A stretch of DNA of 64,000 nt from Gaiellaceae bacterium. GTDB lineage: Bacteria; Actinomycetota; Thermoleophilia; Gaiellales; Gaiellaceae. The stretch lies in the NCBI GenBank assembly GCA_035708345.1, contig DASSSR010000009.1:25-64024 (forward strand), given 5' to 3'. Position 1 is the first letter of the stretch. Every line of letters begins with the position of its first letter. The position numbers and the translations under genes were made by a program. Below the pieces are notes generated by a model, which saw only the letters and a list, made by a program, of their open reading frames with translations, made no database searches and was not told the DNA's origin. Shown here piece by piece: positions 11,480 through 42,421 of this stretch.

Positions 11480-11482
11480 CGC

Positions 11483-11998: not shown

Positions 11999-12003
11999 GA
12001 TTT

Positions 12004-13179: not shown

Positions 13180-13215
13180 ATTCGACCTACTAGAGCGCTC
13201 GGAAAAGCGAACAGG

Positions 13216-14391: not shown

Positions 14392-14552
14392 GACGTGAAC
14401 GCTAGAAGGGGCATCGGACGTTCCGCGCGACAGTCGCGCGACAGGCTCACGGTCCCGCTGGCCGTCTCGGCCGACGACACCGTCCGCCGCCGACAAGTCA
14501 GTAAGAAAGAAAGAATTCCTGCAAACTGGCCGGTTCTTGCAGGACAATCGGA

Positions 14553-14597
14553 AGTGCCCCCGGCAAGAATCGAACTTGCGCACGCGGTTTAGGAAAC
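14553..14597. repeat. Right att direct repeat (inside tRNA-Arg)
   Basis: Identical to 10866..10910. Confidence 0.95.
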
Positions 14598-14626
14598 CGC
14601 TGCTCTATCCACTGAGCTACGGGGGC
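14555..14626 (-). tRNA. tRNA-Arg (anticodon CCT)
   Basis: The minus-strand sequence GCCCCCGTAGCTCAGTGGATAGAGCAGCGGTTTCCTAAACCGCGTGCGCAAGTTCGATTCTTGCCGGGGGCA folds as a 72-nt cloverleaf: 7-bp acceptor stem, anticodon loop TTCCTAA, T-loop TTCGATT. CCA is not encoded. Confidence 0.95.
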
Positions 14627-28027: not shown

Positions 28028-28417
28028 CTAGTCGAGCCAGGCGACTCCTTCGACGTCCGGCAGCTCGAACGGCAGCGCGTGCCAGAAGACGCCGCCGTTG
28101 CGCGAGACGAAGAGGCGGTTGCGGGCGGCGTAGAGCATCCGGTCGGGATCGTCTTCCGCCACCGCGACGGCGAAGCCGGCCGGCAGCCCGCCGCCCGCCT
28201 CCGTCCACGTCGCGCCGCCGTCGCGCGAGATCGCGAGCGGCGGCCGGCGCTCGACGACCGCGACGACCGTCGCGCCCGCGCGCGCCGTCGCGACGACGCG
28301 CGGCAGCTCGACGCCGGGGGCGTCGGCGGCCGGCACCTCCGTCCCCTCGCCGAGCAGCTCCTCCGCCTCGACGTCGACGAGGAAGACGCCCGCGATCGTG
28401 CCGACCGCGGCGATCAC
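28028..28417 (-). CDS. Small BNR/Asp-box repeat protein
   Basis: Two Asp-boxes, SRDGGATW and SRNGGVFW. GTG 28417 overlaps the upstream stop (GTGA). Confidence 0.65.
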   Translation of the reverse strand: MIAAVGTIAGVFLVDVEAEELLGEGTEVPAADAPGVELPRVVATARAGATVVAVVERRPPLAISRDGGATWTEAGGGLPAGFAVAVAEDDPDRMLYAARNRLFVSRNGGVFWHALPFELPDVEGVAWLD

Positions 28418-29199
28418 CGCGCCCGCCCCGCGAGCAGCGCGCCGACGAGCGCCGTCGCCCGGCGCGCCGCGGAGAGCGACGTGTGCCCGTCGGCCCGCGA
28501 CGCGAGGTAGGCGGCGGAGAAGGCGTCGCCGGCGCCGGTCGGGTCGGCGTCGACGGCGCGCGCGGGCACGTCGACCTGCTCCTCCCGGGTGATGATCGTC
28601 GAGCCGACGGGCCCGCGCGTCACCAGCACCTCCGGCACGCCGAGCTCGCGCACGTCGCCGATCGCCGCCGCCTCCTCCTCCGCGAGCTTGAGCACGTCGA
28701 CGTGGCGGAGCACGCCGCGGTCGAGGTCGCCGCTCAGCTCGAGCGGCCCGGTGCGACGCGTGCGCACGAGCCCCTGCCCGTCGAAGAGGATCCGCCGTCC
28801 GCGCGCGAGCCAGGCGAACGCCTCGTCGTCGAAGTCGCCGTGCAGCAGCGCCGGCACGTGCAGCCAGCCGACGCCGCGCAGCAGCGCCTCCGGGATGTCG
28901 CTCACCTGCCACGGCTGGCCGACGGCGTCGACGGCCATCGTCCGCACGCCCGCGTCGTCGTACGAGAACGAGAACGCGGTCGTCTCGCCGCCGCTCTTCA
29001 CCGCGACGGGAAGCCCGAACGCGGCGAGCTTCCGTCCGAACGCGTCGCGGTCGGGCTCGCCGCACTTCGCGACGACGATCGCGCGGTGGCTCAACGCGTG
29101 CAGCGCCCGCGCGGCGTGGAACGGGCCGCCGCCGATCCGCGGCGCCGTGCCGGCGACGACGTCGCGCGCCAGATGTCCGATCACGCAGAGCGAGGCCAC
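28414..29199 (-). CDS. PfkB-family (ribokinase-like) carbohydrate/nucleoside kinase
   Basis: The C-terminal anion-hole motif DPTGAGDAFSAAYL is present. N-terminus VASLCVIGHLARDVV.. Length is 261 aa from GTG 29199. Confidence 0.85.
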   Translation of the reverse strand: MASLCVIGHLARDVVAGTAPRIGGGPFHAARALHALSHRAIVVAKCGEPDRDAFGRKLAAFGLPVAVKSGGETTAFSFSYDDAGVRTMAVDAVGQPWQVSDIPEALLRGVGWLHVPALLHGDFDDEAFAWLARGRRILFDGQGLVRTRRTGPLELSGDLDRGVLRHVDVLKLAEEEAAAIGDVRELGVPEVLVTRGPVGSTIITREEQVDVPARAVDADPTGAGDAFSAAYLASRADGHTSLSAARRATALVGALLAGRAR

Positions 29200-29249
29200 G
29201 GGCGGGAAGCGTACGAGGTCCCCCGGGGACGCCACGCGCCGAGTCGGCG

Positions 29250-30608
29250 CTACCGGCGCGACTGGGAACGCACCCTCGCGCCCGCGAGCGCGGCGAGGCG
29301 GCCCGTGCTCAGGCCGGTGGGGGCCGTCAGCGCCAGGGAGAGCGCGAAGGCCGCGAAGAAGCTCGGCAGCGAGCCGCCGATCGCGCCGAGGCCCGGATGC
29401 GTGTGCTCGACGAGCCGCGTCCACCACGCCGGGCCGACCGGCGACAGCCACTGGTAGAGGCAGAAGCCGGCGAGCCACGCCGCGATCTGCGCGGGGCGGA
29501 CGCGCGGCGCGGCGAACGGGTCGCGGTGCCCCACGAGCCACTGTGCGAGCAGCACGCCGAAGAGCGGGACGAAGAACGACCCGAGCAGCAGCAGGAAGCT
29601 CGCGTACTGGACGAGGTCGATCACGAAGACGCCGACCGTCGCGATCGCGCCCACGAGCACGATCAGCGCGCGCTGCGGTACGCGCGGGACGACGTTCTGC
29701 AGCGACACCGCGGCGGAGTAGACGTTCGCGAACGGCTCCTTCGTCTCGTCGACGCCGAGCGCGACGAGCGCGATCGCCGCCGCGACGCCGCCGCCGGCGA
29801 TCGCCGTCAGCACCGACGGCGCGTCGCTCAGGCCCCGCGTCAGCAGCAGCACGGCTCCGAGCGCGTACAGCCAGACGTTCGGGACGAGGTAGCCGACCGC
29901 CGTCCCCCAGAACGCGCCGCGCCCGTCGCGCGAGAAGCGCGTGTAGTCGGCGGCGAGCGGCAGCCACGACACCGGCATCGCCACCATCAGGTCGACGCCC
30001 TGCCAGAACGACGGGAAGCCGCCCTTGCCCGGCCGCGCCCACAACGTCGACAGGTGCGCCCCCGCCGGCAACCCGTGCAGCGCCCACCAGGTCAGGTACG
30101 CGAGCGACGCGAGCACGACCCAGAGCGCGAACCGCTTCACCCATTCGCGTACGAACCCGACCGGCCCGAGCAGCGCGAGCCCGGTCGCCGCCGCGGCGGC
30201 GGCGAGCTTCCACACCCACATCGGCCCGTGCACGAGCGCGTGCGCCGCGGTCGCGATCACGAGCACCTCGAAGATCGTCCAGCCGAGGTTCTGGAGGACG
30301 TTCAGCGCCGTCGGCAGCCACGACCCCGCCTGCCCGAGCGGCGCGCGCAGCAGCACCATCGCCGGGACGCGGGCCTCCGCGCCGAGCAGCGCCGCGAGCC
30401 CGAGCAGGACGTTGCCGAAGACGCCGCCGACGGCGATCGCGAGCAGCGCCTCGCGCAGCGAGAGCGCCGGCACGAGCACCGTCCCCGCGACGAGCACGAG
30501 CAGGCTCAGCCCGAGGCTGCTCCAGAGCATGCCGTTGTCGAGCCCGCCGAGCGTCCGCAGGCGCGCCGGGACGGGGTCGATGCCCCAGGACGGCGTTCTC
30601 TCCGACAT
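29250..30608 (-). CDS. NCS1-family permease (cytosine/purine/thiamine-precursor type). A CytX-like hydroxymethylpyrimidine transporter is the most likely call given the riboswitch.
   Basis: 452 aa with 12 TM segments, MSERTPSWGIDPVPARLRTLGGLDNGMLWSSLGLSLL.. It is preceded directly by a TPP riboswitch. Confidence 0.8.
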   Translation of the reverse strand: MSERTPSWGIDPVPARLRTLGGLDNGMLWSSLGLSLLVLVAGTVLVPALSLREALLAIAVGGVFGNVLLGLAALLGAEARVPAMVLLRAPLGQAGSWLPTALNVLQNLGWTIFEVLVIATAAHALVHGPMWVWKLAAAAAATGLALLGPVGFVREWVKRFALWVVLASLAYLTWWALHGLPAGAHLSTLWARPGKGGFPSFWQGVDLMVAMPVSWLPLAADYTRFSRDGRGAFWGTAVGYLVPNVWLYALGAVLLLTRGLSDAPSVLTAIAGGGVAAAIALVALGVDETKEPFANVYSAAVSLQNVVPRVPQRALIVLVGAIATVGVFVIDLVQYASFLLLLGSFFVPLFGVLLAQWLVGHRDPFAAPRVRPAQIAAWLAGFCLYQWLSPVGPAWWTRLVEHTHPGLGAIGGSLPSFFAAFALSLALTAPTGLSTGRLAALAGARVRSQSRR

Positions 30609-30611
30609 CGA

Positions 30612-30705
30612 ATCAACTCCCTTCGCCGGTACGAGCCGGATCAGGTTCGACGGGTCTGATCTCAGCCGCGCGTCGGGCGCGGCACCCCGGTAGCAACGAG
30701 CGTAC
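30612..30705 (-). promoter_or_regulatory. TPP (THI-box) riboswitch
   Basis: The minus strand reads CUACCGGGGUGCCGCGCCCGACGCGCGGCUGAGAUCAGACCCGUCGAACCUGAUCCGGCUCGUACCGGCGAAGGGAG. All conserved THI-box blocks are present: GGGGUGC, GCUGAGA, ACCC, GAACCUGAUCCGG, UACCGGCG, AGGGA. The 3' GGGAG doubles as the Shine-Dalgarno 8 nt before AUG 30608. Confidence 0.9.
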
Positions 30706-30731: not shown

Positions 30732-31253
30732 ATGGGGATGCTGCTGGAGATCTCGGGGGTGTCGGCGCTCGCGCTGCTCGTGGGCATGCCGCTGCTGACG
30801 CTCGTGCACGAGCTCGGGCACGGGCTCGTGGCGGCGGTCGCCGTCGGCGGTCGCGTGACGATCGTGCAGGGGCCCGCGCCGGCGAGGCTCCGCGTCCGGG
30901 TCTGGCGGCTCGACCTGCGCCTGCGCGGGCCGGTCGCCCCGCACCGGGTGATGGTCGGCTGGGCCTTCTGGGGGCCGCACTCCGACCCGCGCCGGCACGC
31001 GCTCGCGAACGCCGCCGGCCCGCTCACCTCCGCGCTCTCCGCGGCCGCGTGCGGCGCCGGCGCCTACCTCACGGGCGGGCTCGGCCAGCTGCTGCTCCTG
31101 CTGCTCGGGCTCGCGGCGACGCTGCAGACGCTGAGCACGAGCGTCCCCTGCCGCTACGGCCGCTGGTTCGGCAGCTACGCCGGCGAGGCGAGCGACGGCC
31201 TCCGGATCGCCCGCGCGCTGCGCGGGCGCCGCGGGCCGGCAGCCACCGCCTAG
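30732..31253 (+). CDS. Small M50-like (site-2-protease-type) membrane metalloprotease homolog
   Basis: The HELGH zinc motif sits inside the first TM region (LLTLVHELGHGLVAAV). Length is 173 aa. Confidence 0.65.
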   Translation: MGMLLEISGVSALALLVGMPLLTLVHELGHGLVAAVAVGGRVTIVQGPAPARLRVRVWRLDLRLRGPVAPHRVMVGWAFWGPHSDPRRHALANAAGPLTSALSAAACGAGAYLTGGLGQLLLLLLGLAATLQTLSTSVPCRYGRWFGSYAGEASDGLRIARALRGRRGPAATA

Positions 31254-32305
31254 AACCGCCCGCCGGCGGCGTGGATCGCCGCGTCCTCGTCCTGGGCCGC
31301 ACGGTCGGTCTCGCCGAGCTCCTCCTGCAGCCGGCGCGCGCGGGGCAGCAGCGCGAGCGCGGGCAGCAGCGGCAGCCAGAAGTTGACGGCGCGGTACGTC
31401 ACGGCCGCCGGCAGCGCCTCGGCGAACGGGACGCCCATCACGTGCAGCATCCCGGCCATCGACGCCTCGGCGACGCCGGAGCCCCCGCCGGGCAGCGGCA
31501 CGAAGCTGAGCACCCAGGCGGTCGCCTCCGCCAGCACCAGCCGCGCCGGGTCGAGATGGACGCCGAAGGCGACGAGCGCGACCCAGAGGATGAAGAAGTC
31601 GCCGATCCAGAAGAGCGGATAGCCGGCGACGCCGCCGAGGTAGCGGAGCGGGTGCGAGACGACGTGGCGGACGACGACGACGCCGCCGATCGTGTCCGCG
31701 AAGAGCTTGCGCGCCTTCCGCACCCAGCGGTTGCCGCCCTCGGGCACGTCGAGGATCCGCGGCGCGAGCCGCTCGCCCGAGACGACGGCGGCGGCCGCGG
31801 TCGCCGCCGGCACGACGGCGAGCCAGACGATCGCGAGCGCGAGCGCCCAGCCCGAGGCGCCGAGGATCAGCACGACGAGCCCCGCGAGCGCGGCGAGCGT
31901 CGTCAGCCCCGCCGCCTGCAGCGTGTTGAGCGCCAGCGTGCGCCGGGCCGCCTCGTGCGTCGTGGCGCCCGCCTTGCGCATCGCCCAGTAGTCGACGGTC
32001 AGCCCGCCGGCGCCCGACCCGATCACGTACGCGCCGAGCCCGAGCGTGATCACCTGCGCCGCCTCGCGGTACGGCAGCTTCGGCCCGCCGTCCGCGGCGG
32101 CGACCGAGCGGTACGCGACGACGTAGCCGAGGTAGGCCGCGACCTCGCCGAGCAGGCAGAGCGGCAGCCACCGCTTGTCCGCCCGGCGCACCGCGTCGGC
32201 GAGCTCGCCGTAGCTCGTGAGCTGGCCGAGCAGCGCCACCGCACCGACGGTGAGCGCGAGCGCCACGACGACGCCGATCAGCGCCTTCCGCCGGTCGACG
32301 TTCAC
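31250..32305 (-). CDS. Flippase-like membrane protein (LPG-synthase TM / UPF0104-type domain), copy 1
   Basis: 351 aa from GTG 32305 (GTGA overlap). Polytopic, with architecture and N-terminal pattern (RRKALIGVVVALAL..ADKRWLPLCLLGEVAAYLGY) like MprF flippase-domain proteins. Confidence 0.65.
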   Translation of the reverse strand: MNVDRRKALIGVVVALALTVGAVALLGQLTSYGELADAVRRADKRWLPLCLLGEVAAYLGYVVAYRSVAAADGGPKLPYREAAQVITLGLGAYVIGSGAGGLTVDYWAMRKAGATTHEAARRTLALNTLQAAGLTTLAALAGLVVLILGASGWALALAIVWLAVVPAATAAAAVVSGERLAPRILDVPEGGNRWVRKARKLFADTIGGVVVVRHVVSHPLRYLGGVAGYPLFWIGDFFILWVALVAFGVHLDPARLVLAEATAWVLSFVPLPGGGSGVAEASMAGMLHVMGVPFAEALPAAVTYRAVNFWLPLLPALALLPRARRLQEELGETDRAAQDEDAAIHAAGGRF

Positions 32306-33588
32306 GGCCGGGCCTTCCGCCGCGCGTGCGACGTCACCGCGACGCCGAAGAGCGCGAGCGCGACCGCGACGACCGCCGTGAGCGCCTGCGCCGCGACCGC
32401 GAGCGCGATCGCGGGCTCCGCGTCGATGCCGGCGCCCGCGAGCACGGCTGCGCCGACGCCGGCCTGCGTCGCCGCCCCCGCCGGCCCGATCGGCAGCGCG
32501 GAGGCGCCGGCCGCCGCGACGACGTACGCCGTCGCGACCGCGAACGACGAGCGCAGCCCGACCGCGTCGAGGAGCATGTACAGGCCGCCGGCGCGCGTCA
32601 CCCAGGAGCCGGCGACGAGCAGGACGGCCCAGACCGCCTCGCGGTACGACGCGGGAGCGTGCGCCGCGAGCCAGCGGCCGAGGCGGTAGCGCGCGATGCG
32701 GCCGCTGCCGCGGATCGACGGGAGCGCGGCGGTGAGCAGCGCGGCGCCGACGCCGACGCCGGTGAGGGCGAGCATCGGCACGCGGACGGCGTACGACGCC
32801 CGGACGAAGCCCGCGGCGAATGCGGCGAACGGCGTCAGCGCCGCCATGTCGAGCAGGCCGAGCAGGAAGAGCGAGAGCGCGAGCGTCCCGACCGACGGCG
32901 CCCGCCGGCCGACCTTCCGGAGCACGGCGATCGCGATCGCGTCGTCGATCCGCGAGGGCAGCGCGATCGCGGCGACCGCGGCCGTCGCGTTCGAGGTGAC
33001 GAGCGCGAGCGAGCGCGGCCGCTCGTACGGCCGGAAGAGGCGCTGCCAGGCGAGCGCCCGCAACGCGAACGTCGCGATGAAGAGTGCGGCCGCGGCCGCC
33101 GTCAGCCGCGGGTCGGCGCGATGCAGCCCCCAGCCGCGCGACCTGAGGCGCTGCACGACGAGCACGACGAGCGCCGTCGCCGCGACGACGAAGACGAGCT
33201 CGACGACGTGCCTCGTCCGCCGGCCGCGCACGATCCGCAGCGGCCAGCGCAGCAGCAGCAGCCAGCCGCGCGCGGCGACGCCGAAGGCGCGCTCCGGCTC
33301 CGGCAGCAGCACGTGCTCGTGCCGGCGCGCCGGCGGTGGGGCGAAGCGCGAGAGCCGCCACGCGCGACGGACGGGGGCCGTGGCGCGCCGCCAGGAGCCG
33401 GGCGAGAGCTCGCGCGCACCCCAGAGGGCGAAGAACACCGTCGGCAGCACGTAGAAGAAGAGGACGCCCCACGCGGGGACGATCCGCACGAGCGCGAGCG
33501 ACGCGATCGCGAGCGCGCCGATCCCGAGCGTGGCGGCGGCGACGTAGAGGCGCGCGGCCGGGGACACACCGTCCGCTTCCCCCGGCAT
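32302..33588 (-). CDS. Flippase-like membrane protein (LPG-synthase TM / UPF0104-type domain), copy 2, with extra N-terminal TM segments
   Basis: 428 aa from ATG 33588. Polytopic, with ..LRALAWQRLFRP..LPSRIDDAIAIAVLRK.. typical of the family. Confidence 0.65.
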   Translation of the reverse strand: MPGEADGVSPAARLYVAAATLGIGALAIASLALVRIVPAWGVLFFYVLPTVFFALWGARELSPGSWRRATAPVRRAWRLSRFAPPPARRHEHVLLPEPERAFGVAARGWLLLLRWPLRIVRGRRTRHVVELVFVVAATALVVLVVQRLRSRGWGLHRADPRLTAAAAALFIATFALRALAWQRLFRPYERPRSLALVTSNATAAVAAIALPSRIDDAIAIAVLRKVGRRAPSVGTLALSLFLLGLLDMAALTPFAAFAAGFVRASYAVRVPMLALTGVGVGAALLTAALPSIRGSGRIARYRLGRWLAAHAPASYREAVWAVLLVAGSWVTRAGGLYMLLDAVGLRSSFAVATAYVVAAAGASALPIGPAGAATQAGVGAAVLAGAGIDAEPAIALAVAAQALTAVVAVALALFGVAVTSHARRKARP

Positions 33589-33636
33589 CCCTCGGGGTAA
33601 CGGTTTCGGGCGCGGCCGGCGCGGCACGACACGGGG

Positions 33637-34494
33637 GTGGACCGCGAGGTCGAGCTCCCCGGCGGAGACCGCGTCGCCTACGCGATCTACGGCCGGGAGG
33701 ACGGGCGGCCCGTCCTGCTGCTGCACGGCTTCTCGGACTCCCGTCTCACCGGCCGGGCGTTCGAGGCGGCGGCCCGCAGGACCGGCGTCCGGCTGATCGT
33801 CCCCGACCGTCCGGGGATCGGCGGGTCGACGGGCAGCTTCGAGTCGCTCGCCGACGTCGCCGGCTGGCTCTCCGAGCTCGCCGACGTGCTCGGGCTGCCG
33901 CGCGTGCCCGTGGTGGGGATCTCGGGCGGCGGCCCGTTCACCCTGGCCGCCGCCCGGTTCGCGCCGCAGCGGGTCGAACGGGCGGTGGTCGTCTCCGGGC
34001 TCGGACCGCCGGAGCTCGGCTACGCGGAGATGCCGGCGGGGCAGCGGCTGTCGATCGCGGTCGCGTCGCGGGCGCCGGCGCTGGCGGGCCGGGTGCTCGG
34101 CCTCGTCGCCCGCCTCGGCCGGGTCTCGCCCGCGCTCTTCCTGCGGCTCGTCGGCTCGAGCCCGAGCCCGGCCGACGCCGAAGCCGTGCGCGACCCCGGC
34201 TCCGTCGAGACGATCGTCCGGCCCTTCGTGGAGGCGTACCGGCAGGGCAGCGCCGGCGTCGCCGGCGAGCTGCGCCTGCTGCTGCGCCCGTGGGGCTTCG
34301 CGCCGGCGGAGGTGTCGGTTCCCGTCCGCTTCGAGCACGGGGCCGACGACGCGACGGTTCCGCCTGCGGCCGCGCGGGCGCTGGCCCGCGCCGTGCCGGG
34401 CGGCCGCCTCTCGATCCGCGACGGCGTCGGGCACTTCACGATCGTCCCGCGGTACGGGGACGAGCTCCTCCGCGCCGCGCTCGGCGAGGCCTGA
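33637..34494 (+). CDS. Alpha/beta-fold hydrolase
   Basis: HG oxyanion motif (LLLHGFSDS), nucleophile elbow GISGGG, and C-terminal GHF. Confidence 0.85.
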   Translation: MDREVELPGGDRVAYAIYGREDGRPVLLLHGFSDSRLTGRAFEAAARRTGVRLIVPDRPGIGGSTGSFESLADVAGWLSELADVLGLPRVPVVGISGGGPFTLAAARFAPQRVERAVVVSGLGPPELGYAEMPAGQRLSIAVASRAPALAGRVLGLVARLGRVSPALFLRLVGSSPSPADAEAVRDPGSVETIVRPFVEAYRQGSAGVAGELRLLLRPWGFAPAEVSVPVRFEHGADDATVPPAAARALARAVPGGRLSIRDGVGHFTIVPRYGDELLRAALGEA

Positions 34495-34526
34495 GGCCGG
34501 CGAAGGGCACGCCGGCGGCCACGGCG

Positions 34527-35663
34527 TCAGTCCCCGAGGCCGAAGCCGTCGTAGTGCATCGACGGCCGCCAGAGCGGCCACGCCTGCCGGAAGACGTCGC
34601 GGCGGCGCATGCCCGGCGGCAGCGACACGCTCGGGTGCATCGCCTCCCAGAGCCGGTTCAGCTCGCCGACGATCCAGCGCATCTCGACGCCCGACCGCGC
34701 CACGATCGTCTCCTCGGGCTCGTGCCCCTCGAACGAGCGCGCCGCGACCAGCGGCAGGTCGGCTCCCGCGAGCGCGGTCAGCGGCAGCCAGCCGTAGACG
34801 CGCGCGCCGAGCTCCATCAGCCGCGGCGTCCCTTCCGCGTCGATGTGGTACTGCAGGTCGCCGAGCCCCTCGAAGCCGATCTCGCCGAAGAAGCGGAGCA
34901 CGTCGGCGATCCCGGGCTCCGCCGGCCCGACCGTCCGCCGCCAGACCGCGACGCCGCCGGCGATCGGCCACTGCCGGTACGCCTCGCGCGCGCCCCAGGC
35001 GAGGATCCGGCCCCCGCGGACGACGACGCCGACGCCGATCGACCGCCCGGGTGTCCACGCCTGCACGATCGGCAGCTCCCAGCCGCGGGCGAGATAGCGC
35101 TCGACGGCGGCGCGCGTCTCCTCGGGCGAGTGGACGACCGTGTGCCGCGCGTACGGCCGCGTGTCGCCGAGCCGGCCGTACGAGCGGCGCGGCTTGACCG
35201 CGCACGGGAAGCCGATGTCGCGCGCGGCCGCGACGGCCTCGGCGACGTCCTCCGGGACGACGGAGCGGGGCGTGGGGAAGCCGTGCTCCCGGGCGGCGGC
35301 GAGCGTCTTCACCTTGTCGGTCGCGAGCGCCGCCGACGGCTCGTCGCCGCCGAGCACCCGTGCGCCCTGCAGCAGCCCCGGCGTCTCGTACAGGAGCTCG
35401 AGCGACGCGTCCTCGGCCGGCGAGACGAGGGTCACGCCCCGGCGGTCGATCGTCTCCGCCACCGTTGCGGCGAACGCCGACGCGTGCTTCCTGTAGTCCG
35501 GGAGCCGGACGACCTCGGAGCAGTAGCGGGAGCGCGCCGCCTTCGTGTGCGCGGGCGCGATCACGCGCCAGCCGGCCGACCCGAGCGAGCGGGCGACGAC
35601 GCGGCTCGGCCAGCCGTTCCCGTCGAGGACGAGCGCCACGCGGCGCGGGAGCTCAGCGGCCAC
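34527..35663 (-). CDS. ATP-grasp domain protein (carboxylate-amine ligase type)
   Basis: 378 aa from GTG 35663. ATP-grasp core: DKVKTLAAAREHGFPTP..FPCAVKPRRSYG..IVQAW..LQYHIDAEGTPRLMELGARV. Confidence 0.8.
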   Translation of the reverse strand: MAAELPRRVALVLDGNGWPSRVVARSLGSAGWRVIAPAHTKAARSRYCSEVVRLPDYRKHASAFAATVAETIDRRGVTLVSPAEDASLELLYETPGLLQGARVLGGDEPSAALATDKVKTLAAAREHGFPTPRSVVPEDVAEAVAAARDIGFPCAVKPRRSYGRLGDTRPYARHTVVHSPEETRAAVERYLARGWELPIVQAWTPGRSIGVGVVVRGGRILAWGAREAYRQWPIAGGVAVWRRTVGPAEPGIADVLRFFGEIGFEGLGDLQYHIDAEGTPRLMELGARVYGWLPLTALAGADLPLVAARSFEGHEPEETIVARSGVEMRWIVGELNRLWEAMHPSVSLPPGMRRRDVFRQAWPLWRPSMHYDGFGLGD

Positions 35664-36861
35664 GCGCGCTGCGGTAGGCGGCGAGGAGGCGGGGCAGCCG
35701 CTCCGGGCGTGCGCGCGCGGCCGCGAGGGCCTCCGCGACGCGCAGTGCGCGGACCGCGGGGTCGTGCAGCTCGGGCGGCACCGGGCGTCGCTCGGCCGCC
35801 GCGCGATCGACCTCGCGCGCCAGCCGCTCGGCGGCCGTGCGCCCCTCGCCGTCGGCGAGCGCGGCGGCGACGACCTGCCCGACCGTGAGCGGGACGGTGT
35901 GCGCGAGCAGCGCCCGCACGAAGGCATCGGCGTTCCGCCGCGGCGGCGGCACGGCCGCGCCGACGCCGACGTACGCGCGGCTGCGGCCGCGCACGAGCGG
36001 GTCGTACGCGATCCCGAGCGGCTGCACGACGCGCGGGCGGGCGATGCGGACGAGCGCCCCGACGCCCGCCTTCAGCGGCTGGAGCGACCCGTCGGGGGAC
36101 GAGCGCCCCTCCGGTGAGATGAGCACGACGCCGCCGCCGCGGATGATCTCCACGAAGCGGCGGAAGTCCGCCCGTGCCGCGGCCGAGCGCTCCGCGAACA
36201 GGTTCTCGGCGAGCGAGCCCGCGACGTCCTCCGCGCGCACCACCCACCAGAGGAGATCGGCGTACACGCCCGCGAGCGCGTCGCGCGCCCGCCGCGGCGC
36301 CGGGCGGCCGAGCTCGGACGCGCGCGCGTGCAGCCGGTGCACGAGCTCGGCGGGCAGCAGCTCGTCGAGCTCTGCGTCCGGCTCCGCGCGAAGCAGGTCG
36401 ACCACGAGCATCCGGTGCGCGCTCCGCAGCGCCGGACAGGGAAGCGGGCCGTCGAGCACCCGGGCGAGCCCGATCGGGAAGAGCAGCCGCCGGGCGAGGA
36501 GCGGCAGGCGGAGCGGATACCCGGCGAGGAAGCCGCGGGCGTGCAGGTCGTCCCGGAGCGTGAAGTGGACGAGCAGCTCCTTCCGCCACGGGCGGTAGAG
36601 CCGCGGGTACAGCGCCGCGACCGCGACCGCCGGATCGGCCTCCTGCGGATGGTTCGCGACGAGCAGCGTCGACGGCTCGAGGCGGGCGGCCGCCGGCCCG
36701 AGCGCCTGCACGCGGTACCGGGAGCGCGCCGCCGCGGTCAGGATCAGCGCGGCCGCGTGGTAGAGCGGCGCGCGGCGCCGCTCCGGCGCGCGGGCGACGA
36801 GCGTGTCGAGCGGGGGCGCGCCGAGGGCCGCGCGCTCGGTGGTGGACGCCGTCGCCGTCAT
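35653..36861 (-). CDS. PlsC-like (lysophospholipid/glycerolipid) acyltransferase-family protein
   Basis: The HX4D motif occurs in LLVANHPQEADP, and the downstream ISPEGRSSPDG block (the family's PEGT-type motif) is present. Length is 402 aa. Confidence 0.7.
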   Translation of the reverse strand: MTATASTTERAALGAPPLDTLVARAPERRRAPLYHAAALILTAAARSRYRVQALGPAAARLEPSTLLVANHPQEADPAVAVAALYPRLYRPWRKELLVHFTLRDDLHARGFLAGYPLRLPLLARRLLFPIGLARVLDGPLPCPALRSAHRMLVVDLLRAEPDAELDELLPAELVHRLHARASELGRPAPRRARDALAGVYADLLWWVVRAEDVAGSLAENLFAERSAAARADFRRFVEIIRGGGVVLISPEGRSSPDGSLQPLKAGVGALVRIARPRVVQPLGIAYDPLVRGRSRAYVGVGAAVPPPRRNADAFVRALLAHTVPLTVGQVVAAALADGEGRTAAERLAREVDRAAAERRPVPPELHDPAVRALRVAEALAAARARPERLPRLLAAYRSARGR

Positions 36862-36961
36862 GAACGTGTGATTTCGCCGCGCTGTCGGCCGAAACGACGA
36901 GAACCTCCACATCGCCTCACGATTTGTTTGCCCGCCCGTCCGCGGCGGGCAGAGCCGGAGA

Positions 36962-38113
36962 GTGGGGATCGAGAGCACGGCGCGGGCGGACGTCCTGCCG
37001 CGGGCGCACGCGGTCGCAGGGCTGCGGGAGGTCGACGCGGAGGAGTGGGACGCGCTCGTGCCGCCGGGCCGCGGCGGCCTCAGGCGCGCCCAGCTGCTCG
37101 CGTGGCAGGAGTGCGAGCTTGCCGCGCTCCGCTCCCGTCCGCTCGTCGTGCGCGGGCGGTCCGGCGAGCTGCTCGCCGCGGCGCCCGGGTATCTGTACGA
37201 GCTCGACGTCGTCGCCGTGCAGGAGAGCTGGGTCGCGCGGCTGCTGCAGGCGCTGCGCGTCGTCCGGCCACGGCTGCTGACGATGCGTGTGCTCGAGCTC
37301 GGCTGCGCCGTGCCGGATTCGCCGCCGTTCCTGCACGCGCCGTGGGTCGACACGGTCGAGGCGGCGGAACGGCTGCTCGACGGCGCGCTCCGCGAGGCCG
37401 ACGCCGAGCAGGTCGACATGCTGATCGTGCAGGATTTCCCCGACGACGCCCCGTGGCGGCGCGCATTCCGCGAGCGCGGCTTCTCGCGCATCCCGATGCA
37501 CCCGACGATCGTCGTCGACGTCGTCTGGGACTCGTTCGACGAGTATCTCGCCGCGATGCGCGCCAACTACCGCCGCCGGGCGCGGACGGTGCTGAAGCGC
37601 TCGGCGCACCTGACGCCGGAGCTCGTCGAGGACTTCTCGCCGCTCGCCGACGAGCTCTCGCGCCTGTGGCGTTGCGTGTTCGACCGGGCGACGGAGTACC
37701 GCCGCGAGCTGCTCCCGCCCGCGTACTTCGCGGCGGCCGCCGCCGACGACGCCACCCGCGTCCTGCTCCTGCGCCGCGACGACGCCAGCATCGCGTCGTT
37801 CGCCGTGCTCTACGACGACGCGCCCGTCCTGCACTTCTTCTCCTGCGGCTTCGAGGCGGCGGCCGGACAGGAGGAGGGGGCGTACTTCCGCCTGCTCTAC
37901 GAGATCGTGCGGGTCGGCATCGAGGAGGGGTACGAGGAGATCAACCTCGGCATGACGACGGCCGAGCCGAAGTACGACGTCGGCGGGCGCCCGCTGCCCG
38001 TCGCGTCGTGGATGCGCCATCGCAGCCGGCTGCTGCACCGGTCGTTCGCAGCGCTCGGCGCGGGGCCGTTCGCGCCCGAGGCGCCCGAGCCGCGGCACGT
38101 CTTCAAGGACTGA
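36962..38113 (+). CDS. FemAB-like / GNAT-fold acyl- or aminoacyl-transferase (DUF482 / Acetyltransf_6-type)
   Basis: 383 aa. The overall pattern (..WDALV....QLLAWQECEL..FDEYLAAMRANYRRRARTVLKR..FFSCGFE..YFRLLYEIVRVGIEEGYEEINLG) matches the FemAB-like family. Confidence 0.7.
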   Translation: MGIESTARADVLPRAHAVAGLREVDAEEWDALVPPGRGGLRRAQLLAWQECELAALRSRPLVVRGRSGELLAAAPGYLYELDVVAVQESWVARLLQALRVVRPRLLTMRVLELGCAVPDSPPFLHAPWVDTVEAAERLLDGALREADAEQVDMLIVQDFPDDAPWRRAFRERGFSRIPMHPTIVVDVVWDSFDEYLAAMRANYRRRARTVLKRSAHLTPELVEDFSPLADELSRLWRCVFDRATEYRRELLPPAYFAAAAADDATRVLLLRRDDASIASFAVLYDDAPVLHFFSCGFEAAAGQEEGAYFRLLYEIVRVGIEEGYEEINLGMTTAEPKYDVGGRPLPVASWMRHRSRLLHRSFAALGAGPFAPEAPEPRHVFKD

Positions 38114-38151
38114 CCTCGTACCGGTTCGCGAGCCCGTGCCGTTGGCCGACC

Positions 38152-39390
38152 GTGAGCCTCGACGCGGTCAGGGAGCTCGGCCAGAAGCTGACCCCGGCGG
38201 CGGAGGACGCGGGCGAGCGGAGGCTGATCGGCGTGCTCGGCCTCGGCGTCGTCGGCCTCACCTGGTCGCTGACGACCGTCGCCGCGTACCTGCCGGAGAT
38301 CCTGCACCGCTTCACCTCGTCGCGCACGGTCGTCGGCGGCATCCTCGGCGGCGAGGGGCTCGTGGCGATCGCGGCGCCGCTCGTGTTCGGGCCGCTCTCC
38401 GACCGGCTGCGGACCCGCCACGGCCGGCGGCGCCCGTTCATGGCGGTCGGCGCGCCGCTGATGGTCGCCGCGCTCGCCGTCGTCGCGCTGATGCCGGGGC
38501 TCGTCTGGACGGCGATCGTGCTCGGCTGCTTCTTCGTCGCGTACTACGTCTACGAGACGCCGTACCGCAGCCTCTACGCCGACTGCCTGCCGCGCGGGGT
38601 CGAGTCGGAGGCGCAGTCGGTGCAGCACCTCTTCCGCGGCGTCGCGATCGGGCTCTCGCTCGTGCTCGGCGGCGTCCTGCTCTCGCTCGCGCGGCCGCTG
38701 CCGTTCCTGCTCTCCGCGGGGATCGTCGCCGCGAGCGCGTTCGTGGTCATCCGCGGCGTGCACGAGCGGAGCGGCCGCGACCGTCAGCGCGGGCGCGCGA
38801 CCGAGCCCTTCCGGCTCGCGCTCCGCAGCGGGCCGCTGCGCCGCTTCCTCGTCGCCAACACGGCCTGGGAGACGACGTTCGCCGGGATGCGGACGTTCGT
38901 CGTCCTCTACATCGTGCAGGGGCTGAAGCAGCCGCTGTACGTGTCGTCGGTCGTGCTGGCCGTCGTCGCCGCGGGCTACATCGTCGCGGCCGCGACGGTC
39001 GGGCGGCTCGCGTCGGCGGCCGGCACCGCGCGCGTGATCTTCGGCGCGGCGGTCGTGTACGGCGGGCTGCTCTGGGTCGGGGTCTTCCCGAGCCACTGGC
39101 ACTGGTACTACCTCGCGCTCGTCTTCGTCGTCGCGCTCGCAGCGGGCGCGGTGATGACGCTCGCGTGGAGCCTGCTCTACGAGGTGATGCCGGAGGGCGA
39201 GCGCGGCTCCAGCGCCGGCCTCGGCGACGCGACGAAGGGCGCCGGCCTGCTGATCGGGCCCGCGCTGACCGGGCTCGCGATCGACCTGGCCCACGACTGG
39301 CTCTCGACGACGGACGGCTACGCGATCATGTGGCCGGTGCTCGCGCTGCCGATCGTCCTGACGCTGCCGGTCGTGCGGTCGCTGCGGTGA
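38152..39390 (+). CDS. MFS transporter
   Basis: 412 aa from GTG 38152 with 12 TM segments. The loop 2-3 motif GPLSDRLRTRHGRRRPF is present. Confidence 0.85.
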   Translation: MSLDAVRELGQKLTPAAEDAGERRLIGVLGLGVVGLTWSLTTVAAYLPEILHRFTSSRTVVGGILGGEGLVAIAAPLVFGPLSDRLRTRHGRRRPFMAVGAPLMVAALAVVALMPGLVWTAIVLGCFFVAYYVYETPYRSLYADCLPRGVESEAQSVQHLFRGVAIGLSLVLGGVLLSLARPLPFLLSAGIVAASAFVVIRGVHERSGRDRQRGRATEPFRLALRSGPLRRFLVANTAWETTFAGMRTFVVLYIVQGLKQPLYVSSVVLAVVAAGYIVAAATVGRLASAAGTARVIFGAAVVYGGLLWVGVFPSHWHWYYLALVFVVALAAGAVMTLAWSLLYEVMPEGERGSSAGLGDATKGAGLLIGPALTGLAIDLAHDWLSTTDGYAIMWPVLALPIVLTLPVVRSLR

Positions 39391-40703
39391 CGAGCCTCGA
39401 CGCGCGGGCGCGCGCGGTGCTGGAGCGGAACACGCGCACGGCGGTGCGCGACGGGCGGACGTTCCGCTTCTCGATCCCGGCGGAGGGCTCGTACCCGTTC
39501 CAGTGGTTCTGGGACTCCTGCTTCCACGCGATCGTCTGGTCGCGCTTCGACCGCGAGCGCGCCGCCGACGAGCTCCGCTCGCTGCTCGCCTGGCAGCGGC
39601 CGAACGGGATGATCCCGCACGTCGTCTTCTGGGACCGCTCCGCGATCACCGTCAAGAAGTTCTGGCACCACGCCGAGAGCCGCGGCGTCCCGTTCCTGCG
39701 CACGCCGTGGACGAGCGAGCTCGTGCAGCCTCCCGTGCTCGCGCAGGCGGTGGAGCGGATCGGCGGCGCCGTCGTCGACGAGCTGCTCGAGCCGGTCGCC
39801 CGCTTCCACGGCTACCTCGCGCGCGAGCGCGACCCCGACGGCGACGGGCTCGTCTCGATCGTCAACCGGTTCGAGAGCGGGCTCGACTACAGCCCGATCT
39901 TCGACGACGGCGTCCGCTACCGGAGCCCGGTCGCGCTCTTCCTCGCCGCCCGCCGCGGCGAGGTCGTCAACAAGCTGCTCGGCTTCGACCTCGAGCGCAT
40001 CTTCCGCCACACCGACCACCACTTCGAGGGCGTGCTCTTCAACACGCTGCACGCGGACGGGCTCGCGGCGCTCGCGCGGCTCGCGCGCGGACGCGACGAC
40101 GAGCTCGCGGGCTGGGCGGCGGCGCAGGCGGCGCGGGTGACGTCGGCGCTGCTCGAGCGGTGCTGGGACGAGCGGCGGGGGCTCTTCTTCAACCTCCGCG
40201 GCCGCGGCGAGGCGCGGACGACGCAACGGTCGATCGTCTCGCTGCTGCCGCTCGTGCTCGCCGACCTGCCGCGGGAGGTCTCGGAGGCGCTCGTCGAGCA
40301 CCTGCTCGACCCGGCCACGTTCTGGACGCCCCATCCCGTCCCCTCGGTGCCGCGCGACGACCCGGCGTTCCTGCGCCGCAGCCGCCTGCGCCGCGTGCGC
40401 TTCATCTGGCGCGGGCCGACGTCCGCCAACACGAACTGGCTCCTCTGGCGGGGGCTGCGCAGGCACGGCTACGCGCGCGAGGCGGACGAGCTGGCCGAGC
40501 GGTCGCGCGCGCTCGCCGAGCGCGGCTTCAACGAGTTCTACGACCCGCTCGACGGCACGCCCTGCGGCGCCAGGGACTTCGGCTGGTCGACGCTCGCGGT
40601 CGAGCTGGACTCCGGCTGCAGCTCTCGCCAGAGCAGCCACGCGACGAGCGAGATCATCACGAACGAGCCCTCGAGCAGCATGATCCCGCCGCCGACGCGC
40701 TGA
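39387..40703 (+). CDS. GH63-like (alpha/alpha)6 glycoside hydrolase, glucosylglycerate/mannosylglycerate-hydrolase-like
   Basis: Blocks YPFQWFWDSCFHAIVW, RFESGLDYSP, ANTNWLLWRGL and FNEFYDPLDGTPCGARDFGWS. GTG 39387 overlaps the MFS stop (GTGA). Confidence 0.8.
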   Translation: MTSLDARARAVLERNTRTAVRDGRTFRFSIPAEGSYPFQWFWDSCFHAIVWSRFDRERAADELRSLLAWQRPNGMIPHVVFWDRSAITVKKFWHHAESRGVPFLRTPWTSELVQPPVLAQAVERIGGAVVDELLEPVARFHGYLARERDPDGDGLVSIVNRFESGLDYSPIFDDGVRYRSPVALFLAARRGEVVNKLLGFDLERIFRHTDHHFEGVLFNTLHADGLAALARLARGRDDELAGWAAAQAARVTSALLERCWDERRGLFFNLRGRGEARTTQRSIVSLLPLVLADLPREVSEALVEHLLDPATFWTPHPVPSVPRDDPAFLRRSRLRRVRFIWRGPTSANTNWLLWRGLRRHGYAREADELAERSRALAERGFNEFYDPLDGTPCGARDFGWSTLAVELDSGCSSRQSSHATSEIITNEPSSSMIPPPTR

Positions 40704-41311
40704 TCGTCGAGCCGGTCGCCGTAGCGCGCGTAGTACACGTGCCCGGACCACATGAAGATCTGCGAGAGCGTCAGCGAGACGAGCCACATCACGCCGACGT
40801 AGGCGAGCCGGTGCGGCAGCCGGAACCAGCGCGGCCCGGGCAGCAGCTCGAGCAGAGCCGCCCAGAGCAGCGCGCCGCACGTGAAGAAGAGCAGGTGCTG
40901 GAGCGCGTGCACCGCGTCGTGGTCGAGCGCCGCGTCGTAGAGCGGCGCGACGTGCCAGAGGCAGATGTCGACGGCCCAGAGCGGCAGCGCGACGAGCGGG
41001 TGCGCGAGCACGCGCAGCGTGCGCACGGGCCGCAGCGCGAGCGCCGGCCGCAGCAGCGGCCCGTTCAGGCCGAGCACGCAGAAGAGCGGCGCGAGGTCGC
41101 CGATCAGCAAATGCTGAGCCATGTGGGCGGAGAAGTAGCGCTCCTCGCCGAGCCGGTCGAGCGGTGAGAGGAAGGCGACGAGCAGCAGGGCGATCCCGGT
41201 AGCGAACGAGACGGCGCGCAGGACGTCGACCGTGCCCCGCCGGCGCCGGACGCGCAGCACCGCCGCGGCGTAGAGCGCCGCCGCGAGCAGGGTGAGCGCG
41301 AGCTGGGACAT
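40538..41311 (-). CDS. ctaG: Cytochrome c oxidase assembly factor CtaG (Bacillus caa3_CtaG type)
   Basis: 257 aa with 6-7 TM segments. The blocks FSAHMAQHLLIGDLAPLF and HALQHLLFF are characteristic. It is divergent from ctaC. Confidence 0.8.
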   Translation of the reverse strand: MSQLALTLLAAALYAAAVLRVRRRRGTVDVLRAVSFATGIALLLVAFLSPLDRLGEERYFSAHMAQHLLIGDLAPLFCVLGLNGPLLRPALALRPVRTLRVLAHPLVALPLWAVDICLWHVAPLYDAALDHDAVHALQHLLFFTCGALLWAALLELLPGPRWFRLPHRLAYVGVMWLVSLTLSQIFMWSGHVYYARYGDRLDDQRVGGGIMLLEGSFVMISLVAWLLWRELQPESSSTASVDQPKSLAPQGVPSSGS

Positions 41312-41364
41312 CGGGGTACGAACCGTTTTACCCGGTCACCCCCGGGTAGCCCGCATCCCGTACC

Positions 41365-42354
41365 GTGAAACAGTCGGGGGACAGGATCCGGGGGGCGCGG
41401 CTCGCCGTGCTGGGCGGCGGAGTCGTCTTCGTCCTCGCCGGCTGCGGCAACGGCCAGAACACGCTCCAGCCGAAGAGCCCGCAGGCCGGCTCGATCGCGA
41501 CGCTCTGGTGGATCATGCTCGGCGTCTCGACGTTCGGGCTCGCCGTGATCGTCGGGATGCTCGTCGTCTCCTGGTTCAAGCGCGGCGGCGTCGGCCGCGA
41601 GCGTCCGGCGACGATCACCGTCCTCGTGCTCGGGATCGCGACGCCGATCCTCGTGATCGCCGCGCTCTTCTCCTACTCCGACATCTTCCTGATCCGCGGC
41701 ACGTCCGCACCGCCGCCGACCTCGCTCGTCGCGAAGCGCGCGCTCGACATCACGGTGATCGGCCATCAGTTCTGGTGGGAGGTGCACTACCCGAAGGGGA
41801 AGGTCGTGACCGCGAACGAGATCCACATCCCGGTGCGCACCCCGGTCGTCGTCTCGGTCACCTCGCGCGACGTCATCCACAGCTTCTGGGTGCCGGAGCT
41901 GAACCGGAAGATGGACCTCGAGCCGGGGCGGACGAACCAGGTCGAGATCTACGCGAGCAAGGTGGGCAAGTACCGCGGCCAGTGCGCCGAGTTCTGCGGG
42001 CTGCAGCACGCGCACATGGCGTTCTACGTCTTCGCCGACCCGCCGCCGGTCTTCGCGCGCTGGCTGAAGCGGGAGGCGAAGCCGGCGACGCGCACGCTGC
42101 CGCTGTTCCAGAGCACGTGCTCGAACTGCCACGCGATCCAGGGGACGCCCGCGAACGCGCACGTCGGCCCCGACCTCACGCACGTCGGCTCCCGCACGAC
42201 GATCGCCGCCGGGACGCTGACGAACACGCTCGCGAACATGGAGCAGTGGATCGCGCACCCGCAGGAGGTCAAGCCGGGTAACCAGATGCCCGACCTGAAG
42301 CTGACCGGCGCGCAGGTCCACGAGCTCGCCGCGTATCTGGAGAGCCTGAAGTGA
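41365..42354 (+). CDS. ctaC: Cytochrome c oxidase subunit II with a fused C-terminal cytochrome c domain (caa3 type). Lipoprotein-like signal.
   Basis: CuA site HSFWVPEL..CAEFCGLQHAHM. C-terminal CSNCH heme-c motif plus GNQMP. Lipobox LAGC. Confidence 0.95.
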   Translation: MKQSGDRIRGARLAVLGGGVVFVLAGCGNGQNTLQPKSPQAGSIATLWWIMLGVSTFGLAVIVGMLVVSWFKRGGVGRERPATITVLVLGIATPILVIAALFSYSDIFLIRGTSAPPPTSLVAKRALDITVIGHQFWWEVHYPKGKVVTANEIHIPVRTPVVVSVTSRDVIHSFWVPELNRKMDLEPGRTNQVEIYASKVGKYRGQCAEFCGLQHAHMAFYVFADPPPVFARWLKREAKPATRTLPLFQSTCSNCHAIQGTPANAHVGPDLTHVGSRTTIAAGTLTNTLANMEQWIAHPQEVKPGNQMPDLKLTGAQVHELAAYLESLK

Positions 42355-42421
42355 GCGTAGGCTCGACGGAGCTCACCAGAGAGCGGAGGCGTCAGCTTCG
42401 CCGGCGCCGGGAGCGGGTCAC

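Follow-up and report, generated by a model that had tools for sequence, protein, structure and literature searches.

A 64,000-nucleotide stretch of DNA from the metagenome-assembled genome of a Gaiellaceae bacterium (class Thermoleophilia, Actinomycetota; GenBank contig DASSSR010000009.1, positions 25 to 64,024; hereafter, the window) carries a group of genes that we designate u173, B, A, C, E, D and F (30732-38113). We conclude that these genes constitute one functional, Thermoleophilia-specific module. Its core is composed of a tandem-GNAT transferase (F) and two flippase-like membrane proteins (A and B); an ATP-grasp ligase (E), an acyltransferase (D), a hydrolase (C or, in other genomes, an M28 peptidase) and a small membrane protein (u173) are accessory components. 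What would such a module do? We tentatively favor, with somewhat less than even confidence, a function in which it places an amino acid or short peptide on the head group of a membrane lipid at the cytoplasmic face and then flips the product to the outer leaflet. It would thus be a split and extended version of MprF and the other aminoacyl-phosphatidylglycerol synthases (aaPGS). We favor this interpretation because the PF03706 membrane module, the transferase of Fem/MprF fold and the linked hydrolase match MprF part for part.

Recurrence of the module in related loci

Related loci were gathered from the surroundings of genes homologous to F, E and D, from a search in which an F profile was run against one genome of each species, and from a metagenome search with an E profile; they were then searched with the window proteins by tblastn and hidden Markov models (HMMs). 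All of the related sequences are contigs from metagenomes or metagenome-assembled genomes and many are short; a gene missing from a short one is therefore weak evidence. Two PF03706 genes flank F in some 15 Thermoleophilia loci (the window, L001-L004, L006-L010, L012, L013, L060 and L061), which display at least eight gene orders. Distant F homologues from Acidobacteriota, Gemmatimonadota, Bacteroidota and other groups had no PF03706 neighbors when their surroundings were searched with custom HMMs; the linkage of F to flippases is therefore clade-specific.

The gene orders are diverse. Those that contain window-type components read u173, B, A, C, F (L007/L008); E, u173, B, A, F (L009); A, B, u173, E, F (L010); F, A, B, u173, E (L060); F, E, A (L065); F, E (L014); F, D, E, as in the window (L095); and, in L061, a third PF03706 gene followed by D, F, C, A, B, u173, E. 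L001-L004 and L013 share the order A', F, M28, B', and L006 has M28, PF03706, class-III aminotransferase, PF03706, F, M28, PF03706. Orthologues of A (58-82% identity) are found in L007-L010, L060, L061 and L065, those of B in at least 12 related loci, and those of C (62-67% identity) in the same cluster of L007/L008 and L061. The u173 orthologues (58-66% identity) adjoin B in five loci: L007, L009, L010, L060 and L061. E adjoins F, A or B in nine loci, among them L009, L010, L014, L060, L061, L065, L088 and L095. D is found in a minority of loci, and most of those having F, A and B do not contain it; an orthologue stands with E and/or F in each of L061, L063 and L095, and in L063 D and E form an isolated divergent pair.

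In one locus, E and F are parts of a single protein: an uninterrupted open reading frame (ORF) of 775 residues (L070:5333-7660, metagenome contig Ga0209810_1006443) is 61% identical to E and 52% identical to F. Because the two are fused there, we take E to act together with F. Genes for an M28 peptidase, a B12-binding radical-SAM protein (DUF4070) and a class-III aminotransferase lie 5' of this fusion. Aminotransferase genes of this class recur in L006 and L070, and a gene for an acetyl-CoA-synthetase-like protein abuts F in L009 and L060. As the genes recur in many orders and once as a fusion, the grouping of A through F is beyond chance.

The B12-binding radical-SAM gene also recurs beside the module (L003:7151-8527, L070:2118-3752), in L003 together with genes for a methyltransferase and an aldehyde dehydrogenase; it may be concerned with methylation of a lipid or its head group.

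Gene calls and domain assignments

The window DNA is 72-78% G+C, a composition at which mechanical ORF lists are rich in spurious frames, and we therefore judged frames by their GC content at each codon position. Third-position GC was 0.96-0.99 in all eight of the proposed frames A-H, which was not the case for competing frames. The start of A is ambiguous (an ATG at 33588 or a start at 33567); the third-position GC of this gene is 0.974. B and A are joined by a 4-nt GTGA overlap (32302-32305), as are G and H. The overlap of D and E, read from the DNA, is 11 nt long (GTGGCCGCTGA), with D ending at 35653 and E starting at 35663. Divergent spacers of 48 bp and 100 bp separate A from C and D from F, respectively; 38 nt lie between F and G, and the convergent genes u173 and B overlap by 4 nt at their stops.

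These genes, strands, overlaps and gaps agree throughout with a first-pass annotation of the same DNA, which had listed A-H, and the codon-position GC supports them. The domain assignments made there also held up in HMM searches, in which every Pfam call for A-H exceeded the gathering cut-off of its family. That gene list was incomplete, however: u173, a conserved ninth component, lies just outside the coordinates that it covered.

Table 1. Coordinates of the module genes and of the adjoining genes G and H.
Gene	Predicted product	Coordinates	Strand	Length (aa)
u173	HExxH membrane protein	30732..31253	+	173
B	flippase-like, PF03706	31250..32305	-	351
A	flippase-like, PF03706	32302..33588	-	428
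C	alpha/beta hydrolase	33637..34494	+	285
E	ATP-grasp ligase	34527..35663	-	378
D	LPLAT/PlsC-superfamily acyltransferase	35653..36861	-	402
F	tandem-GNAT transferase	36962..38113	+	383
G	major facilitator superfamily (MFS) transporter	38152..39390	+	412
H	GH63-like glycoside hydrolase	39387..40703	+	438

The transferase F

At the level of sequence, F is a member of the PF13480/PF04339 (COG3146) family. It matches PF13480 (Acetyltransf_6) at 30.7 bits against a cut-off of 22, and 35 of 35 homologues match this family as well. PF04339 matches 34 of the 35; F itself scores 14.6 bits, below the cut-off of 27. None of the 35 members matched PF02388 (FemAB) at E<=0.1, and NCBIfam yielded no name for F or for D. 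The literature that we searched assigns no function to COG3146/PF04339: a pterin-related hypothesis for it has been invalidated (PMC3223725), and a role of AlpO, from the argolaphos cluster, as an aminoacyl-tRNA ligase has only been proposed (PMC8976061).

The AlphaFold model of F (predicted local distance difference test score, pLDDT, 91.6) is a tandem GNAT of Fem/MprF fold. Its top Foldseek matches in the PDB are Sbb17/Sba18 (E 4e-13), FemX, FemA and the DUF2156 domain of MprF, with template modeling (TM) scores of 0.5-0.7; these are transferases that depend on aminoacyl-tRNA, which supports the MprF-like interpretation. The E-values for FemX, FemA and Sbb17/Sba18 range from 4e-13 to 2e-10; FemX structures 7z6a, 4ii9 and 1ne9 give TM-scores of 0.57-0.66, and FemA (1lrz) and the synthase domains of MprF/aaPGS (5vrv, 4v34-36, 7duw and 9goe) are matched also. 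Tandem GNATs that use acyl-CoA (VipF, Eis, NMT and the clavulanate GNAT) rank lower, with TM-scores of 0.36-0.49.

The family is very large: 4962 clusters were found at E<=1e-3 among 1.84 billion representative proteins, or about 5000 clusters at 50% identity. No PF03706-GNAT fusion occurred among the 150 best of these 4962 representatives; the fusions found instead were to serine-palmitoyltransferase (Spt)-like, PilZ and histidine-kinase domains. Flippase-linked members of the family are 47-55% identical among themselves, and the nearest clade that is not flippase-linked (P0094, P0097 and P0098) is 44-46% identical to all of them. A plasmid search with F returned just three unannotated GNAT matches.

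The fusions of an Spt-like domain to a GNAT (P0253, P0331, P0335 and P0378) often include a PilZ domain too, and they may represent uncharacterized ceramide-like lipid synthases under the control of cyclic di-GMP.

The membrane proteins A, B and u173

Both A and B match PF03706 (LPG_synthase_TM; cut-off 33.4), a family that also takes in the N-terminal transmembrane region of MprF: A at 62.8 bits (4.8e-17) over residues 136-411, and B along its full length at 90.5 bits (1.7e-25). B also scores 45.3 bits against the NCBIfam flippase-like model TIGR00374, and it aligns to positions 8-294 of bifunc_MprF, where its score of 26.6 is to be read against a whole-protein cut-off of 600. A search of the PDB with the sequence of B gave nothing useful. 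The N-terminal extension of A, some 135 residues long, consists of two hydrophobic segments and an Arg-rich stretch. Because they are coupled tandem paralogues, A and B probably form a heteromer.

The hydrophobic protein u173 has two hydrophobic segments and no Pfam match. In an alignment of its orthologues, H26-E-L-G-H30 (HELGH) and S154-D-G156 (SDG) are invariant; judged by these motifs, u173 appears to resemble a miniature site-2-protease (M50-like) metallohydrolase.

The ligase, the acyltransferase and the hydrolases

E matches ATPgrasp_Ter (32 bits) and CPSase_L_D2 (26.7 bits) in Pfam. Its model (pLDDT 94.2) resembles biotin carboxylases and 2pn1 in Foldseek (E 4e-19), K157, E284 and R288 are invariant in its alignment, and L-amino-acid ligases are among its PDB sequence matches. 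As modeled, E is a generic ATP-grasp carboxylate-amine ligase of the three-domain biotin-carboxylase/CPS-like type, a fold that does not reveal the substrate. Relatives of E at 47% identity are fused to a polysaccharide deacetylase, and homologues at or below this identity form a separate clade that has no detectable F or A/B neighbors. In L062 (8782-11968), one such fusion, 47% identical to E, lies beside a PF13480 GNAT gene within a Wzx/Wzy exopolysaccharide cluster, raising the possibility that an ATP-grasp enzyme and a Fem-like GNAT make up a portable unit for decorating amino groups.

D matches PF01553 at 28.3 bits (cut-off 23) and carries the motifs NHPQEAD (HX4D) and SPEGRSS. Over 30 homologues, H71, D76, F100, R103, D105 and P250-E251-G252 are invariant, accounting for motifs I (HX4D), II (FxxR) and III (PEG); motif IV is present as well. 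Its profile matches PlsC (5kym) at 5.6e-7; a long insert lies between motifs II and III, and there is a C-terminal extension. An ORF of 403 residues located 3' of F in L010 was considered as an equivalent of D and rejected, as it had no similarity to D and no Pfam match. Elsewhere, in L064 (10001-14724), a D-type acyltransferase (45% identity to D) is encoded a few genes from a stand-alone PF03706 gene and a PAP2 phosphatase, a hint that LPLATs of the D type work together with PF03706 proteins in further lipid settings.

C matches Abhydrolase_1 (57 bits, 2.8e-15) and has a GISGG nucleophile elbow; in the PDB, the sequence nearest to it belongs to a pimeloyl-ACP methyl ester carboxylesterase (1.2e-22). 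We regard it as a candidate esterase that removes or remodels the modification. In L001, L003, L006, L012, L013 and L070, M28 peptidases take its place. These have a hydrophobic transmembrane hairpin at about residues 55-100 and no signal peptide, features by which they look like membrane-anchored peptidases specific to the module. Neither signal peptides nor transmembrane segments were found in C, D, E and F; their chemistry is therefore cytoplasmic.

A proposed mechanism and its alternatives

The data show which domains the proteins have, what folds they adopt, that their genes are linked and that E and F can be fused; from this we infer each of the following biochemical steps. F, a soluble protein, would aminoacylate a lipid of the inner leaflet, aminoacyl-tRNA being the most likely donor. 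E would perform an adjacent ATP-dependent ligation, in which a second carboxylate or amine partner (a residue) is added or the alpha-amine is capped; such an N-cap or second residue would also stabilize the labile aminoacyl ester. D, coupled to E, may acylate or re-acylate the lipid, and the coupled paralogues A and B, by analogy to MprF, would translocate the product. C, or M28 peptidases elsewhere, presumably trims or removes the modification together with u173. G and H would be unrelated neighbors without a role.

The operons of aaPGS feature a triad of synthase, flippase and hydrolase (reviewed in PMC6103681), and the position beside F, A and B that is occupied by either C or an M28 peptidase mirrors this triad. 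The recurrent class-III aminotransferases (L006, L070) point to an amino compound. A cultured Solirubrobacter contains an unidentified aminophospholipid in addition to phosphatidylglycerol (PG), diphosphatidylglycerol, phosphatidylinositol and phosphatidylinositol mannosides (PMC10722151); along with the aminotransferases, this lipid fits an amino-acid-bearing phospholipid as the product. The first-pass annotation had likewise envisaged split MprF-like parts in a lipid head-group pathway. That these parts are linked, and that F has the FemX/MprF fold, is borne out, but the pathway does not extend to all eight of the genes included there.

A bolder version of the MprF-like mechanism, which we consider unlikely, posits a new lipid class: peptidyl- or N-capped aminoacyl-lipids, whose head group would be built in tandem by two different amide- or ester-forming chemistries, those of E and of F physically coupled to it, and exported by a heteromeric PF03706 flippase. 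Most radically, E would itself supply the activated amino acid, independently of tRNA. This last notion is pure speculation, and it is weakened by the many loci in which F and flippase genes occur without an ATP-grasp gene.

Several observations weigh against aminoacylation by F. Its score against PF09924 (LPG_synthase_C/DUF2156) is 13.3 bits (E 0.044), below the cut-off of 27.5, although nine of the 35 F-family members do show sub-threshold matches to this family (best, 3e-6), which we count in favor of aminoacylation. Profile searches of PDB sequences matched F to neither FemX nor MprF. The PDB matches of F include no structure of the ceramide-synthase type, and this may have biased the Foldseek ranking. 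Distant members of the F family are fused to Spt-like enzymes dependent on pyridoxal phosphate (PDB 8guh, 3.5e-94; NCBIfam serine palmitoyltransferase, 425-471 bits). In the sister clade (P0094, P0097 and P0098), the F-type gene is translationally coupled to an alpha-oxoamine synthase gene, whose stop it overlaps by 4 nt on two independent contigs (L005:8751-11209, L094:4796-7164); the best PDB matches of this synthase are KBL/BioF and serine palmitoyltransferase (1e-90). To our knowledge, the sole precedent for such a pairing is an N-acyltransferase dependent on acyl-CoA, namely bacterial ceramide synthase (bCerS), the one characterized partner of bacterial Spt. We saw no paralogue or fusion of an aminoacyl-tRNA synthetase. 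C, lacking a signal peptide, differs from the secreted aminoacyl-PG hydrolases. D and the aminotransferases also find a less natural place here than they would in a pathway for an acylated aminolipid.

Such a pathway is the most serious competitor, one that we deem possible but doubtful. Here, F would be an N-acyltransferase similar to bCerS or OlsB, using acyl-CoA or acyl carrier protein (ACP) to acylate an amino acid, a dipeptide or an amine-bearing lipid. E would build or extend the amino-acid head group, either as an L-amino-acid ligase or by amidating the free carboxylate; D, in the manner of OlsA, would attach a second acyl chain through an ester bond; A and B would carry the finished lipid outward; and C, the M28 peptidases and u173 would degrade or trim it. 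The coupling of the sister clade to alpha-oxoamine synthase and the Spt-like fusions of distant relatives favor this scheme; alpha-oxoamine synthase (PF00155) is found in neither the window cluster nor any flippase-linked locus, though. The known bCerS resides in the cytoplasm as a peripheral-membrane N-acyltransferase acting together with Spt (PMC11087976, PMC11324152), but the Pfam family to which it belongs is not stated in the literature that we searched. We presume that bCerS is a GNAT of F's type, a lead and not a test, as its membership in PF13480/PF04339 could not be confirmed. If the presumption is correct, F probably transfers a fatty acyl group and not an aminoacyl group.

Other components are similarly two-sided with respect to an aminolipid. 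The full LPLAT motif set of D fits an OlsA-like role, yet most loci with F, A and B do without D. L-amino-acid ligases appear among the sequence matches of E, the class-III aminotransferases could supply a non-proteinogenic amino acid that tRNA cannot deliver, and the acetyl-CoA-synthetase-like gene abutting F would also be at home in such a pathway. On the other hand, Foldseek places enzymes that use aminoacyl-tRNA above acyl-CoA tandem GNATs for F, and OlsB and GlsB constitute a single-domain family distinct from the two-domain F of Fem/MprF fold. PF03706 proteins have been tied experimentally to aminoacyl-PG alone, and the context of PF03706, hydrolase and peptidase genes is explained less well than by the MprF-like mechanism. 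Finally, the Solirubrobacter lipid is an aminophospholipid, as opposed to a phosphorus-free aminolipid (PMC10722151).

Instead of a bulk membrane lipid, the acceptor might be a glycan linked to a lipid, or a precursor of the cell wall (for example a polyprenyl-phosphate sugar, lipid II or a glycolipid), to which E and F would add an amino acid or peptide branch before A and B flip it. We view this as rather improbable. FemX and FemA do act on peptidoglycan precursors, but F lacks a PF02388 match. The deacetylase fusions among E relatives, with their Wzx/Wzy setting in L062, speak for a glycan; the homologues concerned, however, belong to the distinct clade without detectable F or A/B neighbors, and genes for glycosyltransferases, Wzx/Wzy or Mur proteins are absent from all of the Thermoleophilia F/A/B loci. 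In the window, the GH63-like and MFS genes lie 3' of F, but they never recur with the module. The walls of Solirubrobacter contain meso-diaminopimelic acid (PMC10722151). Walls with this component are usually cross-linked directly and need no Fem-type bridge.

Could G and H belong to the pathway, for example by importing and hydrolyzing a glycoside and thereby supplying or recycling a glycolipid head group? G matches MFS_1 (81 bits, 1e-22), and H matches MGH1-like_GH (PF22422; 252.9 bits, 8.9e-75). The score of H against the NCBIfam model GluglyHdase, 153.5 bits, is far under the cut-off of 550, making it a family-level member only. By these profile matches, H is a GH63-like hydrolase of the mannosylglycerate/glucosylglycerate-hydrolase family, which, according to its Pfam and NCBIfam names, acts on soluble glycosyl-glycerates. 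F, G and H could be co-transcribed, as they run in the same direction with 38 nt between F and G and a 4-nt overlap of G and H, and a scan detected no terminator-like site between F and G; the promoter and terminator scan was uninformative in this DNA of 75% GC. The first-pass annotation had proposed all eight genes as one cluster. This holds for A-F, linked as they are in shuffled orders and by the E-F fusion, but a search of some 30 related loci, including as much as 10 kb of flanking sequence, found no homologue of G or H (E<=1e-6). In L006, moreover, the module directly abuts ctaG, as the window module would without G-H; an M28 gene, a PF03706 gene and a small ORF stand where the window has G-H. 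This makes G-H look like an insertion into a site that is conserved on the chromosome. Because they never recur, we treat G and H as plain neighbors, probably a separate two-gene unit for the uptake and hydrolysis of a glycosyl-glycerate-type solute, and we judge an eight-gene pathway to be very unlikely.

Chance juxtaposition of unrelated housekeeping lipid and metabolic genes is extremely improbable and close to refuted by the synteny data: although every domain family is common on its own and acyltransferases like D and ATP-grasps like E are also encountered elsewhere (L064, L072-L087), the same families co-locate in at least eight rearranged orders, neighboring genes are translationally coupled, and E and F exist as one fused ORF.

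Comparison with known systems

The module works most like MprF/aaPGS (the LysPG and AlaPG synthase-flippases) with a hydrolase, yet it is not a member of that family. It shares with these systems the PF03706 transmembrane module, here present twice, and a cytoplasmic tandem-GNAT catalytic module, whose fold is the same as that of F according to Foldseek. An alpha/beta hydrolase is associated, as in systems with operon-linked hydrolases (AhyD, PA0919, AcvB/VirJ), and the predicted logic of cytoplasmic head-group modification followed by flipping is also common to both. Unlike MprF, its parts are separate polypeptides encoded on opposite strands, and the flippase part comprises two paralogues. 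F falls in PF13480/PF04339 (COG3146) and below the threshold of PF09924/DUF2156, and hydrolase C is cytoplasmic. The module further includes an ATP-grasp enzyme, an acyltransferase of the LPLAT type, a membrane protein with an HExxH motif and, elsewhere, M28 peptidases.

Comparable in some respects are the fungal ErdS/ErdH and ErgS, which are synthases of aspartyl- and glycyl-ergosterol with a hydrolase (PMC8913301, PMC7334510), and the Corynebacterium AlaDAGS/PesT. These systems have a lipid-aminoacylating GNAT that is free-standing or otherwise fused, acceptors other than PG, and a cytosolic alpha/beta hydrolase (PMC8913301, PMC7334510, PMC6103681). The ErdS, ErgS and AlaDAGS enzymes are DUF2156 members, however, and are not known to have separate flippase proteins or an ATP-grasp partner. 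FemX/FemA and Sbb17/Sba18, the best structural matches to F, are soluble tandem GNATs that aminoacylate an amine, forming peptide bonds with aminoacyl-tRNA as donor. F, by comparison, has no PF02388 match and no detectable sequence similarity to them in the PDB; they act on precursors of peptidoglycan or on an antibiotic scaffold, and do so without flippase partners.

Ceramide synthesis in bacteria likewise employs a soluble, peripheral-membrane N-acyltransferase that acts on a lipid amine in the cytoplasm (PMC11087976), and relatives of F are coupled or fused to Spt-like alpha-oxoamine synthases. In contrast to that pathway, the window and the flippase-linked loci have no alpha-oxoamine synthase, ACP or CerR-like reductase. 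We considered the putative flippase of the Caulobacter cluster, CC_1166, as a PF03706 parallel and rejected it, as it is of Wzx type. The syntheses of ornithine and glycine lipids (OlsB/OlsA, GlsB/GlsA) resemble the module in combining an N-acyltransferase with an HX4D, PlsC-type O-acyltransferase to produce a lipid that contains an amino acid. They differ in having no known ATP-grasp or PF03706 component, and D occurs in only a minority of loci. The two analogies proposed at the outset, to MprF and to ornithine-lipid synthesis, each receive real support from the data.

It had also been supposed that no system of this composition has been described. In agreement, we found none in the literature that we searched, nor any paper there that combines PF03706 with ATP-grasp. 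We rate the composition as having no described counterpart in that literature and as belonging to the modification of lipid head groups with amino acids, coupled to flipping.

Implications

Lipid aminoacylation by MprF is a major determinant of membrane charge and of resistance to cationic peptides, and all that has so far been associated with it is a single fused architecture and a single catalytic family (DUF2156). The present system is conserved, has stand-alone paired flippases, draws its catalytic protein from the functionally unassigned COG3146/PF04339, and includes an ATP-grasp enzyme that is sometimes fused to it. Its characterization would give the COG3146/PF04339 family its first function, offer a natural experiment in which synthase and flippase activities are separated, and probably uncover a novel membrane lipid of Gaiellales and Solirubrobacterales, soil bacteria that are abundant and barely cultured and whose "unidentified aminophospholipid" has so far had no genetic explanation. 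Were F instead similar to ceramide synthase, such chemistry would extend to non-sphingoid aminolipids and PF03706 would be linked to their export. Were aminoacylation independent of tRNA, COG3146 GNATs would be a third family of lipid head-group aminoacyl transferases, in a very abundant lineage of soil actinobacteria.

Chromosomal surroundings

The module adjoins a cytochrome c oxidase cluster (ctaG, a COX2-cytochrome c fusion and COX1) both in the window (40538-44317) and in the distantly related L006 (12056-18980), which suggests an ancestral chromosomal position. On its other side, a thiamine pyrophosphate (TPP) riboswitch (30601-30699, minus strand; 67.8 bits) lies directly 5' of a gene for an NCS1-family permease (Transp_cyt_pur; 29250-30608, minus strand). 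This permease is probably a transporter of thiamine or a precursor; the next gene (28414-29235) encodes a PfkB-like kinase.

Farther away, an island of lower GC content (about 10900-14550; GC 0.66 vs. 0.72-0.78) contains no ORFs with high third-position GC and abuts a tRNA-Arg(CCT) gene (14554-14626, minus strand). A Fic/DOC gene (12523-13179, plus strand) and a serine-recombinase/HTH fragment (11483-11998, minus strand) lie within the island, which probably represents an integrated element that has decayed. An rRNA operon next to the cluster was considered and rejected, as this low-GC stretch (10.9-14.5 kb) is devoid of rRNA. The window also carries envelope genes: one for a Wzy_C/O-antigen-ligase-like membrane protein (24420-25511, plus strand) and another for a glycosyltransferase (14666-16318, minus strand) of GT87, a family that includes the polyprenyl-phosphate-mannose-dependent mannosyltransferases of mycobacteria.

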